Virus record (IMG/VR): IMGVR_UViG_3300017780_003084
Span: 1-64,000 of that record
Reading direction: 5' to 3' (one strand)
Origin: a virus
Lineage: Duplodnaviria > Caudoviricetes
Length of the DNA stretch: 64,000 nucleotides
Within the stretch, counting starts at the first letter, position 1; each line of letters starts with the position of its first letter. A program made the position numbers and the translations under genes. Below the pieces are notes generated by a model. It saw only the letters and a program-made list of their open reading frames with translations, did not search any database and had not been told where the DNA came from. Positions 3,567 to 47,790 of the stretch are shown in pieces.

Positions 3567-3953
3567 ATGCTATATGTAGCTTTGTTAATTATTGCTATTG
3601 CATTAAACTGGAGCTACAAAAAGAACCTACTACTAGTTTTGGTAGTAGGTTTTAGTGGCTTATTGCCAATGCAAATGGTAACTGATTATTACGCTTGGTG
3701 GACTATCTGCATTGGTTTTGAATTATTTAAGATAGGGTTGGCAGTCTATTTAATGACGAGGATTAGCTACCCTGTAGCATTCCTTTGTAGCTTAATGCTA
3801 GCGTGTCATTTGATAATAATGTTTGCTATTAATCAAGCACCACATACAATTATAGTTCCAGCCTTGGAACATTTAGAAATACTTTCGTGTATTCTATTCT
3901 CACACCCCGCACTACTCTACTTAAAAAGGAAAATTAAATGTCGATGGAAATAG
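3567..3953 (+). CDS. Multi-pass membrane protein
   Basis: About four hydrophobic segments; tight operon packing. Confidence 0.7.
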   Translation: MLYVALLIIAIALNWSYKKNLLLVLVVGFSGLLPMQMVTDYYAWWTICIGFELFKIGLAVYLMTRISYPVAFLCSLMLACHLIIMFAINQAPHTIIVPALEHLEILSCILFSHPALLYLKRKIKCRWK

Positions 3954-20742: not shown

Positions 20743-20974
20743 CTAAGCAGACCAATCAGCAGTAATATCAGTCCACTCTAAATCTGATGGAACATTTTCA
20801 CACAAATAACATTCTCCACCATAATACCCATTACTACTGTTCCTGTAAATCATCTCTATGCTAACAGTATGTCCCTTGGTAGTTGTACTTTTGCGCTATT
20901 GTTGGTAACAAGTCTTCTGGGGTAATTGTGTCAGAATAATTAACACCGATTTTAAAATCCATTACTGAGGTCAT
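20743..20974 (-). pseudogene. Split/frameshifted gene with an RNSSNGYYGG-type C-terminal half
   Basis: 37-aa ORF 20861-20974 followed by an out-of-frame 44-aa stretch (KGHTVSIEMIYRNSSNGYYGG...DWSA*) at 20743-20877. Confidence 0.5.
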
Positions 20975-21690
20975 GGTTTCTCCTTTGGCTTCATAAGAAC
21001 TTCTACTGTATGCTTTTGCACACCTTCAGAATCTCTAATATCTTTCTTACTAGCATATTCCCAGACAACTTCCCATCCAATCGGAACATTCTCTTTGTAC
21101 TCCGAAACTAAGACTGTAAAGCCTTCTTGACACTTATCTTCAGCCCACTTGTAAAACTCTTGGTGGTTAAAGCTACCAACTGAATACTGTGTAGAGTCTT
21201 TGTAAGGTATGTCGCAGTATAACATGGAACCTTCGGGGATTACAACATCTTTGTAGCTTTGGTTGAGAAATACAACATCTGTCAGGTTTTCAGACTTCTT
21301 CCTGATAGAATTCACACCGTTACTGAAATAGTCATCTCCGCGACTATTTCTTGCGAATCCCCTAAACCAATCACCACCAAATGCCAAACTAAATCCAACA
21401 AAACCTCTAAACCAAGCTGGATACTTTTCATTATGATCTTTCTTAATTTCTTTGTACTCTTCCTCAGAAATTCTCACAGGATTAAAGTATCCTTTCTGCA
21501 CAGACTTCCACATCTCAATCAATTCATAGTGCAAGTCATTAGCAATACGAGTTCTGTTAGATTCAATCTTGCTGATAACATTACAACTTCCACAAAATAA
21601 GTCTACAAAAGGTTGATCCTCTTTCAGTTGTGAGTTTAAGTATTGTGCTAGTGGTTTAGCTATCCTAGCTTTTCCTCCGAAATACTGCAT
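20971..21690 (-). CDS. DNA adenine methyltransferase, D12/Dam-like (alpha class)
   Basis: YFGGK, FVDLFCGSC, IANDL, catalytic YCDIPY (DPPY variant), VLVSEY. Confidence 0.85.
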   Translation of the reverse strand: MQYFGGKARIAKPLAQYLNSQLKEDQPFVDLFCGSCNVISKIESNRTRIANDLHYELIEMWKSVQKGYFNPVRISEEEYKEIKKDHNEKYPAWFRGFVGFSLAFGGDWFRGFARNSRGDDYFSNGVNSIRKKSENLTDVVFLNQSYKDVVIPEGSMLYCDIPYKDSTQYSVGSFNHQEFYKWAEDKCQEGFTVLVSEYKENVPIGWEVVWEYASKKDIRDSEGVQKHTVEVLMKPKEKP

Positions 21691-40840: not shown

Positions 40841-41537
40841 ATGTTACACATTTGCATCCAATGTATAGGAGGAAATATGGAGAAGATGTATTACAAAGAT
40901 AGGGAGATTTTGCTAGTGGAGTGTGAAGAAGGTGTTTCACTGTGTAATGGCTGCGTGCTGGAGGATGAAAATCACTACACTAAAGCTATTAGCCCACAAC
41001 AAAGTGTTAATGTATGCTGTCCTAAGTATACAGGGAAGTTTTATATATTTAAATTTAAAGGAGAAGAATTATGAAAGTTGTACGTAAAAAAGTTGAACCA
41101 GTGTTTATCCCAATCACCATCACATTAGAAACTAAGGCAGAGTATTACAGCTTGTTAGCTACTCTCGGCAGCAGTCATTTCAAGGGAGAGTTGCAAGAGC
41201 TTGATAACATGGGTATTACTGTTACTCCTGAGTATGAAAGCCCTTCTGATAATTTGCATGTAATGCTGCAAAACTTATTCAACGAAATACGAGGGGAAAT
41301 AATATGACTATTAAAGTGACACAAGAAGAAGCTAAGTTTTGTCCAGTGACAATCGTTATCGATGATGGGCGTACAGCTAATTTATTGAAGCACTGTATTG
41401 GTATTTGTCTAAATACCTTTGATGCCTCAGATGTTAAAGGTATTGTATGCACAATCGAGACTCAACAAGATTATGATGAAAGCAGAAATGAATTGAAGTC
41501 ATTAAAACTTGGGTTAGAAGACATCTGTAAACTATAA
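40841..41537 (+). CDS. Three small hypothetical proteins (~40878-41074, 41071-41307, 41304-41537)
   Basis: Preceded by a TTGCGC-18-CATAAT promoter (40804-40833); the last two share an F.P.TI motif. Confidence 0.65.
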
Positions 41538-41542
41538 ACAAC

Positions 41543-41580
41543 AAGCCCTGTCATTCCTTTCGGAAGCAGGGCTTTCTCTT
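41543..41580 (+). terminator. Intrinsic terminator
   Basis: AAGCCCTG..TTCC.TTTC.GGAA..CAGGGCTTT followed by TCTCTT. Confidence 0.8.
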
Positions 41581-41599
41581 GTGTGCTATATGACTTTCT

Positions 41600-42060
41600 A
41601 AAATAATTTCAAATAAAAATATTTATAAAAAATTTTAAGGCCAACCTTCGCAGTATAATAATCATTCTCCCTCCCCATGAATTCCTCGTTTTCAACCAGC
41701 TTTGTCAAGGATGCTTTACATCAACATATAGCTATATAACTATTTACGCATAGATGCAAATACGTATATAAGCATGTAAAGCACGTTTGACTTTTCTTGT
41801 AATTGCGCTGGCAAGCTTAGAACGATCACAGAATGCCGTGTATGCTTGCGAGGACGTGCTAGAATCGTTTTAAAACACTAGGTAGGATACTTACTAACCT
41901 AACGCATTTAAACAGCTCAAAGAGGCTTAAAACACGTATTAGACCATAACGCGCAATATCGGATTAATAGCGCAATTCCAAGGAAGGCGAAACGAGGCAT
42001 AAGCTAGCTTCTGAATAAGATAATAAGCTTATGAGTGCAATCAAGAAACCGATTGCGAAG
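41600..42060. other. Non-coding region with an A/T tract, a C-rich patch and TTTAAAAC/AATCGTTTT motifs; candidate genome-end boundary
   Basis: No plausible ORF; motifs are echoed at 47450-47790. Confidence 0.5.
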
Positions 42061-42075
42061 GGAAATACTTTGATG

Positions 42076-42115
42076 CTGTAACAGGCTAAAGCTTTCTAGT
42101 TTTAGTCCGTTACAG
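42076..42115. terminator. Long hairpin closing the leftward early transcript
   Basis: CTGTAAC.GGCTAAA...TTTAGTC.GTTACAG. Confidence 0.65.
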
Positions 42116-42121
42116 AATTAT

Positions 42122-42277
42122 TTATTCAATTGCTGAAAAGATAGATTGGACTGTATCAACTCGCACCAATTCACCAAATCCGTCATCAACAAAGAAAATT
42201 GCAGCTTTAGATGTAGAGTAAATTCCACATTTAAGTCTCGTGTATCTTGTTGTTTTATTCCAAGAATGTAAAAACAT
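42122..42277 (-). CDS. 51-aa leftward early protein (not in the ORF track)
   Basis: RBS AAGGA, own promoter and downstream hairpin; MFLHSWNKTTRYTRLKCGIYSTSKAAIFFVDDGFGELVRVDTVQSIFSAIE. Confidence 0.75.
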   Translation of the reverse strand: MFLHSWNKTTRYTRLKCGIYSTSKAAIFFVDDGFGELVRVDTVQSIFSAIE

Positions 42278-42315
42278 AATGTTTCCTTAAAGTAATTAAG
42301 ATAATACCGCAAACA

Positions 42316-42346
42316 AATCATCTCATGTTTTCTTAAATACTGTCAA
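42316..42346 (-). promoter_or_regulatory. Early-class promoter
   Basis: TTGACA-18-GATGAT within CATGAGATGATT. Confidence 0.7.
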
Positions 42347-42410
42347 TCGAATTTTAAGCAACGCATAAAACAACAGTATAAAACTATTTTCATTTATTAT
42401 TAAAAATCGC

Positions 42411-42441
42411 TTGCACAAAATAATAATTTCATGAGATGATT
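42411..42441 (+). promoter_or_regulatory. Early-class promoter
   Basis: TTGCAC-18-GATGAT within CATGAGATGATT. Confidence 0.7.
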
Positions 42442-42444
42442 CTT

Positions 42445-42710
42445 CCACTGCAGCGAATAACTAAGGGCATAACGCAAGTTTGTAAGTCCACACAATAGTT
42501 GTTGTGATTTGCGAGAGGTTGAAAACCTCGGGGAAAACTTCGAGGGTGCCATTAATCCCTTACATAATGGACAGAGAATTGGCGGGGATTCTCAAGTAGT
42601 TTTAAATAGCACTAAACAAGGTTTTACGAAACTTTGGACAGAGTGATAAAATAGATGCAGCATGTGGGGAACTGGTAAAATCACGTTAAAATCCTATCTA
42701 TTTTATTATG
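42445..42710 (+). ncRNA. Candidate structured RNA / long leader, family unknown
   Basis: No ORF between the promoter and the RBS at 42741; several stems including a perfect 11-bp helix (42646-42656 with 42696-42706) and a possible pseudoknot at 42542-42570. Confidence 0.5.
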
Positions 42711-42751
42711 ATGTTGTGTGCTAGAATGTTTAAATCAATTAAGGAAATATT

Positions 42752-42805
42752 ATGTTCGAGACTGATATGCTGGAAAATATGCAAGCTATGAAAGGCACAA
42801 AATGA
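42752..42805 (+). CDS. 17-aa micropeptide MFETDMLENMQAMKGTK
   Basis: RBS AAGGA; paralogue at 46311. Confidence 0.7.
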   Translation: MFETDMLENMQAMKGTK

Positions 42806-43533
42806 GTGATTTTTCAACACACCAAGCTAGTTATATTTTGTTTGTTGTATTTTTTGTTTTGGTTCCTCTCTTAAATTTTATTGAAAGTTATTTATGAATA
42901 TTAGGCATAAAACAATGCGGTTATGGAATTCTGGATTTTCTGAGTTAGAAATTATCAATCGTGGTGGATGTCAAACTATTTATAATGAATTATTTGCTAC
43001 TTATGGATGTAAATCTATCCCGTTACATGTATTACATGGGCTAAAAAGGACTGAAAGTTATAGTTGCAATTTTCACAATCCACCAGAAGCTTTGCAATTA
43101 CGTGAAATTATTTCAAAACATAATGAAAGTATTTAATATGAAAAATCGTAGATTATCAGGTAGGGAATTTTGCAGTCAATTGGATAGTTTATTCAGTGTA
43201 GCTAAATCGTGCAAATACGATGCGCAAGTAGTGCATGAAAGATTTGCAAGCATGTTGCAAGAATTAAAAACAAGAACTCCTAGCGGGAAACCACGATATG
43301 CATATTACTTAAGGCAATATGTCATTGGGTATCATGATGCTTTACACTCTCACATGTGGCAGAATGAGCTAGAATTCTGTTATGTTTATAACGGTGAATT
43401 GTATTCGACACATAAAGTCAGTAATCATAAAAATGCAGAATTGTTATTTTTGAATAGAGAAAATTCTAGTGCATTCATGGATAGTTTAGAACGTGGACAC
43501 TACTGGAAAAATTCAAACAAACTATTTGCTTAA
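42802..43533 (+). CDS. Early ORFs (42802-42897 TM peptide, 42894-43136, 43123-43533)
   Basis: ATGA-type coupling. Confidence 0.6.
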
Positions 43534-43541
43534 AAATTAAA

Positions 43542-43571
43542 TTGACAGAGTAGAATAAACTCTGAGATAAT
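43542..43571 (+). promoter_or_regulatory. Early-class promoter
   Basis: TTGACA-18-GATAAT within CTGAGATAATT. Confidence 0.7.
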
Positions 43572-43617
43572 TCGTTCTGTCTTAAACGACACAATTTTAA
43601 ACACATTGAAAGAAATT

Positions 43618-44079
43618 ATGAAAAATATCACTTACATGCAAACAGAATCAGGACGCATTTTCACAACTTCTAGCCCACAGTATCACAAGCAAGATAAAAA
43701 GCTTACTAAAAAAGAAGGTGAACAGCTTTACAAAGAACAATGCAGAAATGAATTATTATCACTGGTAAAACCTAATGATAAAGTATATGTTAATGTGGTT
43801 TCTGTGTCATCATCTGGCATGTCTAGAAAAATGAGTTTTCACATTATCAAAGACAATGAACTGCGTAGTATTAGTTATCTTGTTTCTGTTGTAGCTGGGT
43901 ATAATACCGATAATAATTACAATCTTAAGGTGTCTGGGTGTGGTATGGACATGGGATTTAGTGTCGTTTATAATCTTGGGCGTTGCTTATGGCGTGATGG
44001 CACACCTGAATCACATGGCACTAGAAACGGTGTCGCTGACTTTGATGGCGGGTATGCTTTGAAATATTCTTACATTTAA
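43618..44079 (+). CDS. Conserved phage early hypothetical protein
   Basis: VS.SGMSR...GCGMDMGFSVVYNL...GGYAL motif set, which recurs in phage early regions. Confidence 0.75.
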   Translation: MKNITYMQTESGRIFTTSSPQYHKQDKKLTKKEGEQLYKEQCRNELLSLVKPNDKVYVNVVSVSSSGMSRKMSFHIIKDNELRSISYLVSVVAGYNTDNNYNLKVSGCGMDMGFSVVYNLGRCLWRDGTPESHGTRNGVADFDGGYALKYSYI

Positions 44080-46759: not shown

Positions 46760-46789
46760 AAAGCCTATCGAGTGATAGGCTTTTGTTTT
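46760..46789 (+). terminator. Intrinsic terminator ending the early operon
   Basis: AAAGCCTATC-GAGT-GATAGGCTTTTGTTTT. Confidence 0.9.
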
Positions 46790-47399: not shown

Positions 47400-47732
47400 A
47401 GGCTAGCGCCCTGTTAAACAACACTTGTGCCTCTGACCATTTTCAGACATCACTCCCTCACAGATATATTCCCACACAGCTCAAATATCCCTGCCAATAA
47501 ATGTCACTTCCTGAAAAATTTTTATAGAAAATTTGACGTTTGAAACACTTCCAAGACACTCTTTACAGATATTTTCTGTACAGAATGCTAATAATTGTGT
47601 CTCGAACACAACAATAATTTACAATTTTTAATTTTCAGCGTATTGGGAAGAATTTCAGGAAGTATAGATAGCGATATCAATATGATTTAATATGCTTTAG
47701 GGAAGCGTCTTATAGTGGGAATTAGACGTAAT

Positions 47733-47790
47733 AAAACGATTTAAACGCTCATCCCATAGAAACATACTAGGACGACGTTTAAATCGTTTT
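47733..47790. repeat. Perfect 15-bp inverted repeat with a 28-bp spacer
   Basis: AAAACGATTTAAACG ... CGTTTAAATCGTTTT. Confidence 0.9.

Follow-up and report, generated by a model that had tools for sequence, protein, structure and literature searches.

Evidence for a conserved three-way-junction RNA module in the early-operon leader of four uncultured freshwater phages

The analysis supports a previously undescribed, structured non-coding RNA element of the plus strand, which heads the early operon in the window (the whole stretch of DNA analysed, that is, the first 64 kb of a 90,329-bp IMG/VR virus record). The element is a module of 117 nt that folds as a three-way junction. The preliminary description had proposed one structured RNA of about 270 nt, covering 42445-42710, as the first thing transcribed in the operon; the conserved fold occupies the 3' part of this stretch and overruns its end by 13 nt, reaching 42723. 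Taken jointly, two statements are quite probable: that the module is a conserved structured RNA of the plus strand in an early-operon leader transcribed from a sigma70 promoter, and that the 155 nt between the promoter and the module are an insertion with no demonstrable role.

The window carries genes for ribonucleotide reductase, ATP-dependent ligase, primase-helicase, and ThyX. Judged by the primase-helicase, the nearest cultured relatives are Pseudomonas syringae phages of about 99 kb, with 52% identity. The stretch 42445-42710 lies in a 1.3-kb ORF-poor region, bounded on the left by a rightward operon ending at 41537 and on the right by a rightward block of very small genes starting at 42753. 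Three relatives from IMG/VR entered the comparison, namely G001 (IMGVR_UViG_3300019776_000194), G002 (IMGVR_UViG_3300008267_000017), and the more divergent L013 (genome G008, IMGVR_UViG_3300008450_000013). The four phages that bear the module are related, uncultured, and from freshwater. The comparison set comprises four sequences of only two sequence types, and the loci of 12 further homologues of the neighbouring gene (P0003-P0014) were left out of the alignment. The tblastn search with the neighbouring gene against GenBank phages returned no match.

The module consists of an outer stem that closes two adjacent hairpins, H1 followed by H2 (Table 1), and a junction strand of 4 nt lies between the outer stem and H1. 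In the outer stem, one A-U pair is changed to G.U in G001 and one G-C pair to G.U in G002; L013 forms a different 6-bp helix there, AUCGCA/UGCGAU, for which the chance frequency in shuffled flanks is 6-16%. The most conserved core is H1 with its flanks (42614-42640), where both strands are invariant in the four phages except for one deleted G in G001. The perfect 11-bp stem reported earlier in the 3' part of the stretch is real and belongs to the longer A/U-rich helix of H2. In total, H2 has about 21 bp (4 bp, the tandem G.A, and 14-15 bp), which corresponds to about two helical turns, and its apex is almost invariant among the three close sequences, those of the window, G001, and G002.

Table 1. 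Positions of the module, its parts, and the neighbouring elements in the window
Feature	Position	Strand	Basis
Conserved three-way-junction RNA module, 117 nt	42607-42723	+	homology, covariance model, folding z
Outer stem UAGCAC/GUGCUA, 6 bp	42607-42612 with 42718-42723	+	folds
Hairpin H1, 8-bp stem and UACG tetraloop	42617-42636	+	kept in all four phages
Long hairpin H2, directly contiguous with H1	42637-42715	+	folds
H2 base GACA/UGUU	42637-40 with 42712-15	+	folds
H2 tandem GA/GA internal loop	42641-42 and 42710-11	+	folds
H2 A/U-rich stem, 14-15 bp, including the 11-bp repeat	42643-57 with 42695-42709	+	folds
H2 apical part, 37 nt	42658-42694	+	folds
H2 apical sub-helix GGGG/UCCU	42666-69 with 42692-95	+	RNAalifold
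H2 apical sub-helix AAC/GUU	42670-72 with 42685-87	+	RNAalifold
Predicted early promoter P1, TTGCAC-N18-TGaGATGAT (TG-extended -10)	42411-42440	+	sequence; predicted
Lineage-specific leader insertion, about 155 nt	42452-42606	+	absent from all three relatives (alignments)
Hairpins of the preliminary description within the insertion	42473-42513, 42515-42529, 42574-42593	+	sequence
Proposed pseudoknot within the insertion	42542-42570	+	sequence
Extended -10-like element TGCTAGAAT, overlapping the 3' strand of the outer stem	42719-42727	+	sequence
Shine-Dalgarno AAGGAA and first micro-ORF, 17 codons, ATG at 42753	42741-42806	+	sequence

For the fold, four independent MFE predictions, one per phage, resulted in the same topology. 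Against shuffled sequences, the z-score of the module was -3.68 in the window (0/500 shuffles), -3.40 in G002, -2.17 in G001, and -1.68 in L013; the slightly shorter stretch 42609-42715 scored -3.24. Among 194 windows of 117 nt sampled along the 64 kb, that of the module ranked fourth by z, and 2.6% of the sampled windows were at z <= -3.4. Over 42607-42729, identity is 93% with G002 and 88-92% with G001; the neighbouring 143-residue protein shares only 49% identity with its G002 counterpart.

When the three close sequences were aligned with MAFFT, each of them could form all 33 pairs (100% of cells paired, with 6 extra pair types). The seven stem substitutions all preserve pairing; five are A-U/G.U or G-C/G.U transitions, and the remaining two are the sides of one double change in H2, from G-C to A-U at 42654/42698. 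H2 harbors five of the stem changes in these sequences, each of which keeps its pair. The covariance model R1, built on the three close sequences, detected a single copy per genome in the four phages, the divergent L013 among them with E 6e-8, and five more distant relatives (G003-G007, with primase-helicases 41-68% identical) yielded no module by blastn or R1. With L013 added, its row fitted to R1, 96.9% of the cells were paired and 8 pairs were changed on both sides, compared with 0-4 in slid controls (0/500 shuffles); the H2 helix is retained in L013 through 7 double changes. The stems contain 19 G.U cells and 0 A.C cells, and RNAalifold on the module alignment gave -30.1 kcal/mol for the plus strand versus -10.9 for the minus strand. 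Because of these counts and this asymmetry, the structure is assigned to the strand transcribed with the early operon. The junction also persists in the MFE and centroid folds of the whole 314-nt predicted leader (42447-42760). Both strands of H1 and the H2 apex are conserved in sequence, which suggests that sequence as well as shape is recognized; this pattern argues for recognition by some macromolecule rather than for a mere helix.

The flagged stretch as a whole behaves differently from its 3' part. On the plus strand, 42445-42710 had an MFE of -61.7 kcal/mol and a z of -1.21, with 23 of 200 dinucleotide shuffles as good, and the minus strand had a z of +0.12. The 5' 157 nt, which contain five of the helices noted earlier and the proposed pseudoknot, gave a z of -1.14 (24/200 shuffles as good). 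All eight motif pairs of the preliminary description are present, at or within two bases of where they had been placed, and GCATGTGG occurs as well, at 42660-42667 instead of 42658. Its first five helices and the pseudoknot all fall within the segment of about 155 nt that is absent from the relatives. Since this segment has no counterpart there while the promoter and the first transcribed bases align, it is an insertion into the leader. A single RNA unit of about 270 nt is thus not upheld, given the weak overall z and a 5' part that is lineage-specific, has no homologue, and shows no excess stability. The expected folding beyond shuffled controls was borne out for the 3' 117 nt and failed for the whole stretch and for the 5' part, and covariation among homologues was likewise found for the 3' 117 nt only. 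When the full leader was folded, the stems of the suggested H-type pseudoknot were missing from the MFE structure and from the centroid alike. As a lesson, a dense set of hairpins picked by eye, here in the 5' two-thirds, can be a statistically unsupported lineage-specific insertion.

The insertion is single-copy in its own genome and had no match in the relatives, GenBank phages, plasmids, IMG/VR k-mer scans, or GTDB genomes; its k-mers and the pseudoknot pattern were found in none of the IMG/VR or GTDB genomes. It was also considered as a diverged copy of the module and rejected, as the local alignment was no better than that of 20% of shuffles and the covariance model score was at chance level. 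The 9-mer TGGACAGAG occurs twice, at 42568-42576 in the insertion and at 42635-42643 at the H1/H2 junction, each time between two hairpins; despite this common 9-mer, the insertion and the module are otherwise alike only at chance level. In the full-leader fold, CGAAUA at the 5' end of the insertion (42454-42459) pairs with the first codons of the micro-ORF (42754-42759), a pairing seen in both the MFE and centroid structures and confined to this non-conserved leader. The flagged stretch was described as ORF-free, and no frame with a plausible start and a Shine-Dalgarno sequence was found in it. A 45-codon TTG frame (42509-42646) was rejected as a gene, having no Shine-Dalgarno sequence and not being kept in the relatives, and a 7-codon frame inside H2 (MQHVGNW) was rejected as coding, being absent from L013.

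Transcription from P1 is predicted to start near A42447. The aligned counterparts of P1 are TTGACA-N17-TATAGT (G001, G002) and TTGACA-N18-TAAGAT (L013), and a predicted sigma70 promoter in the same orientation lies upstream of the module in 4/4 phages. In the relatives, this promoter is near consensus and 4-30 nt upstream of the conserved block, and the distance from the predicted early start site to the module is 1-30 nt. Judged by the -10 positions, the first base of the outer stem would be at about +1 of the transcript in L013 and +3 in G001. The extra leader 5' of the module amounts to 25 nt in G002, with a small hairpin of its own, and to about 160 nt in the window, whose first transcribed bases, CCACTGCAGC, match those of the relatives.

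At the 3' edge of the module, all four phages keep an element of the form TGn + NANNNT. In L013 the sequence there is TGCGATAGT, with TGTAAGAAT also present, and the -10-like element is kept though the stem sequence differs. The element of the window, TGCTAGAAT, lacks a good -35; it could act as a second promoter (P2) or as a pause signal dependent on sigma70. The first gene downstream of the module is the 17-codon micro-ORF in the window and L013, a gene of about 50 codons in G001, and a hydrophobic 31-codon gene in G002. Because the first gene differs among the phages, the module goes with the promoter and not with a gene, and this linkage argues against gene-specific translational control. 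No internal intrinsic terminator was predicted in the early operon, the sole strong one being at 46760, where it closes the operon. Additionally, the R1 search found no module at the other early promoters (43542, 45387, and the leftward 42346).

We compared the region with the known RNA classes. The preliminary description had recognized no tRNA, tmRNA, riboswitch, or ribozyme, and the searches agree with it: Rfam at the gathering score gave 0 matches in the whole 64-kb window, Rfam at E<=10 on the region gave only chance-level rows at E 1-10, and ARAGORN reported 0 tRNA or tmRNA genes. The blastn search against GenBank phages and plasmids found no match, and the 20-mer of hairpin H1 had one unrelated G+C-rich match in metagenomes and none in GTDB genomes. 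A decoy of the pseudo-ToxI kind had been suggested; an antitoxin RNA or decoy of the ToxI type (tandem pseudoknot repeats of about 34-36 nt) was rejected, as there is no tandem repeat at a TRF score >=30, and the direct repeats present are only one 12-mer pair and one 9-mer pair. An intrinsic terminator or attenuator was discarded, with no terminator-like site in 42300-44000 and an A/U-rich H2 stem that carries a 37-nt apex. Similarly, a leader-encoded antisense RNA of the P4 CI or P1 c4 type was rejected after a search of the downstream operon in each of the four phages, which gave only 9-mer complementarities at chance level, none independently conserved. The module is a new RNA motif of no curated family, confined within the collections searched to four uncultured phages. 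It is one of a known general kind, the structured leaders or 5'UTR RNAs of phage early transcripts. Of the earlier proposal of a novel regulatory leader RNA, the narrower claim for the 3' module stands; a regulatory leader or antiterminator would be the best remaining class of explanation.

Among known systems, 29 candidate ncRNAs derived from 5'UTRs were described by ONT-cappable-seq in virulent Pseudomonas phages, with more than 90% conservation within genera, and were defined by a premature 5'UTR terminator together with transcript data (bioRxiv 10.1101/2023.10.13.562163). Like them, the module is short, structured, placed between the promoter and the first gene, and about 90% or more conserved among close relatives; unlike them, it has no predicted terminator and is predicted from sequence comparison.

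The put elements of HK022 consist of two stem-loops in about 70 nt, with no closing helix; one follows PL immediately, the other comes about 270 nt after PR, and they suppress a pause 21 nt downstream of put (PMC9378689). Binding RNA polymerase at the beta' zinc-binding domain, put RNA suppresses pausing as well as downstream terminators. The module shares several of these traits: it has two adjacent stem-loops on the transcribed strand, downstream of a predicted sigma70 promoter; it sits behind a host-type early promoter at a variable distance (here about 0-165 nt), as putL and putR do; no dedicated gene is needed nearby, and the element is independent of the genes downstream; and a pause-type signal is close by, in our case the conserved -10-like element at the 3' edge. 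In contrast with put, as judged by its description, the module has 117 nt closed by a 6-bp outer stem, is present in one copy per genome instead of one per early promoter, and belongs to an operon without internal terminators that need read-through. It is therefore not a member of the put elements, and it may work in a similar way.

The leaders of the rrn and lambda boxA/nut type also resemble the module, which lies directly behind an early promoter and sets a hairpin beside a conserved single-stranded stretch; in contrast to these leaders, it has no boxA-like sequence nearby, and its junction strand, CUAAACAA, has only AACAA in common with boxA. No GCUCUUUAACAA-like match with <=2 mismatches was found within 2.9 kb of the module, boxA-like matches across the window are at chance level, and on these sequence grounds a Nus-dependent, boxA-type antitermination leader is excluded. 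Processing hairpins for RNase III are known from the early region of T7, where they are repeated between genes, and from the lambda N leader. Like them, H2 is a long, irregular hairpin that includes an internal loop, measures about two turns, and sits in the untranslated 5' part of an early transcript. In contrast to both, it is part of a junction, stands beside a second hairpin of invariant sequence, and has a conserved 37-nt apex; compared with the T7 sites, it is single and not repeated between genes.

From the linkage of the module to its promoter, we infer a cis-acting leader that would set the fate of the transcript. The reading that we rank first, tentatively, is a put-like cis action whose target would be the elongating RNA polymerase or termination factors. 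The outer stem would close just behind the polymerase, possibly held by the overlapping -10-like TGCTAGAAT, and the closed module would display the invariant H1 and the conserved H2 apex as a binding surface. It would thereby counter mainly pausing or Rho, in the mode of the HK022 put RNA without being its homologue, and allow processive transcription of a long, poorly translated early transcript rich in micro-ORFs. This put-like reading is consistent with the common topology, the pair-preserving changes, the strand asymmetry, and a fold kept in the whole 314-nt leader; with 93% identity of the module beside a 49%-identical protein; and with a promoter directly upstream in 4/4 phages followed by three different first genes after the same module. 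The resemblance to put in placement, variable distance, two stem-loops, and a pause-type element at the edge points the same way, as does the conservation of H1 and the H2 apex, which argues for a macromolecular partner. Against it stand the small base of four sequences and two sequence types, with an L013 alignment fitted to the model, the weak z of L013 (-1.68), and its outer stem that may be due to chance (6-16%). Moreover, the operon has no predicted internal intrinsic terminator to be read through, other early promoters are without the module, the closed junction of 117 nt is unlike the open put of about 70 nt, and TGCTAGAAT may be just a second promoter, whose P2 transcripts would lack the module. 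A bolder form seems to us distinctly unlikely. In it, the module would be an autonomous RNA of new architecture that loads on the polymerase of the host while sigma70 is held at the overlapping -10-like element, and elongation through the early operon would be reprogrammed with no need for a phage protein.

The other explanations share parts of this evidence. In the one we rank second, the junction would shield the 5' end of the early transcript from RppH and RNase E, or H2 would be an RNase III site that matures the early mRNA. The near-start position of the outer stem in G001 and L013 (predicted +1 to +3), the small 5' hairpin of G002, the independence of the downstream gene, and an H2 of about two helical turns contiguous with H1 agree with such a role. 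Sites for RNase III typically offer at least about 20 bp of near-continuous helix, in many cases interrupted by an internal loop, and the modelled H2 shows this helix geometry. However, helix geometry would suffice for processing and leaves the near-invariant loop and the H1 sequence unexplained; the 5' end in the window is itself not well paired and lies about 160 nt away from the module; and the operon has a single such hairpin, compared with the repeated T7 sites. We consider this stability or processing role doubtful. A feature of the DNA is unlikely: here the region would hold tandem early promoters, namely P2 (42719-42727) and perhaps TTTACG-N18-TAAAAT (42623-42652), together with operator and A/T-rich upstream sequences, and the RNA fold would be incidental. 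The TGn-extended -10-like element is indeed present in 4/4 phages, even where the outer-stem sequence differs, and a recombination boundary follows it immediately; 42623-42652 is among the sites of the consensus promoter scan, and a dimer could bind H1, an inverted repeat, though an imperfect one. The stem substitutions, though, preserve pairing only in the sense of the plus-strand RNA (19 G.U, 0 A.C, and the strand asymmetry), and they include a compensatory exchange of G-C for A-U. In L013, the helices persist in a different sequence and the internal promoter-like site is missing; P2, moreover, lacks a -35.

A small RNA acting in trans is very unlikely. The module or the whole 270-nt leader, insertion included, would be released and would serve as a decoy or sponge that captures an RNA-binding defence or regulator of the host, or as an antisense RNA of the P4 CI or P1 c4 type, which would suit the conserved loop sequences and the abundant short RNAs derived from 5'UTRs that are documented in virulent Pseudomonas phages (bioRxiv 10.1101/2023.10.13.562163). 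This trans role is opposed by the absence of a terminator or evident 3' end after the module, of ToxI-type tandem repeats, and of any complementary target above chance in the downstream operon of the four phages, and by an insertion that is unique to one phage. Finally, the fold might have no function and be a by-product of A/T-rich composition and recent common ancestry, since about 2.6% of the sampled windows reach z <= -3.4 and the three close sequences are near-identical, so that few independent events are represented. We give little credence to this, the least probable of the readings, as it conflicts with the 93% identity of the module beside a protein at 49%, with the pair-preserving pattern of changes, and with a position behind the promoter that is conserved across mosaic flanks.

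Other structured sites were noticed in the window. A second non-coding block at 41668-42063, within the ORF-free 41540-42120, is 73-80% identical in all four phages. RNAalifold on a plain MAFFT alignment gave long-range helices (41684-92 with 41989-97; 41801-10 with 41968-77) and hairpins rich in compensatory changes (41998-42005 with 42026-33; 42037-42 with 42051-56). In this block, 94% of the cells are paired and 20 pairs are changed on both sides, compared with 1-4 in slid controls (0/500 shuffles); the alifold values were -81.8 for the plus strand versus -84.4 for the minus strand, and Rfam gave no match. The block may be a structured RNA of about 400 nt or an origin-type DNA structure, and it is possibly more interesting than the flagged leader itself. 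The cassette between the two conserved non-coding blocks is variable (42122-42277, minus strand, in the window; L006 1800-1990; L002 2430-2605). It holds a leftward 51-codon gene in the window and no gene in L013; in G001 and G002, the gene is another one, also leftward, with about 65 codons and preceded by the inverted repeat GTGC-N5-GCAC. Genes between and after the non-coding blocks are swapped, and the blocks themselves are kept.

Farther away, a perfect 14-bp hairpin, GAACCUACUACUAG, with the loop UUUU and followed by U's, lies at 3622-3653 inside the listed ORF 3567-3953. The surrounding 141 nt had a z of -5.5, and the 117-nt window at 3601 had a z of -7.0, the lowest of the 194. The hairpin resembles an intrinsic terminator, which would make the call of ORF 3567-3953 questionable. 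A perfect 15-bp inverted repeat, AAAACGATTTAAACG/CGTTTAAATCGTTTT, with its arms 28 nt apart (47733-47747 with 47776-47790), is found in the gene-free stretch after the early operon, where the 117-nt window at 47701 scored z -4.1. In the same 117-nt scan, 21301-21417 had a z of -4.4, inside the overlap of ORFs 20971-21690 (minus strand) and 21259-21600 (plus strand).

Under the bolder put-like reading, the adjacent covarying block of about 395 nt (41668-42063) might belong with the module to one early control region based on RNA. To our knowledge, very few cis-acting RNAs that control early transcription have been described outside the lambdoid phages, and none from uncultured freshwater phages. 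The module is compact, linked to a promoter and not to a gene, and internally consistent in its covariation. If it were an autonomous RNA that loads on the polymerase, just one class of put-type RNA would precede it, and none in a virulent phage. Should it change the processivity of the polymerase or the stability of the transcript, the module would represent a new regulatory part, as well as a new case of a phage early programme controlled by RNA alone.
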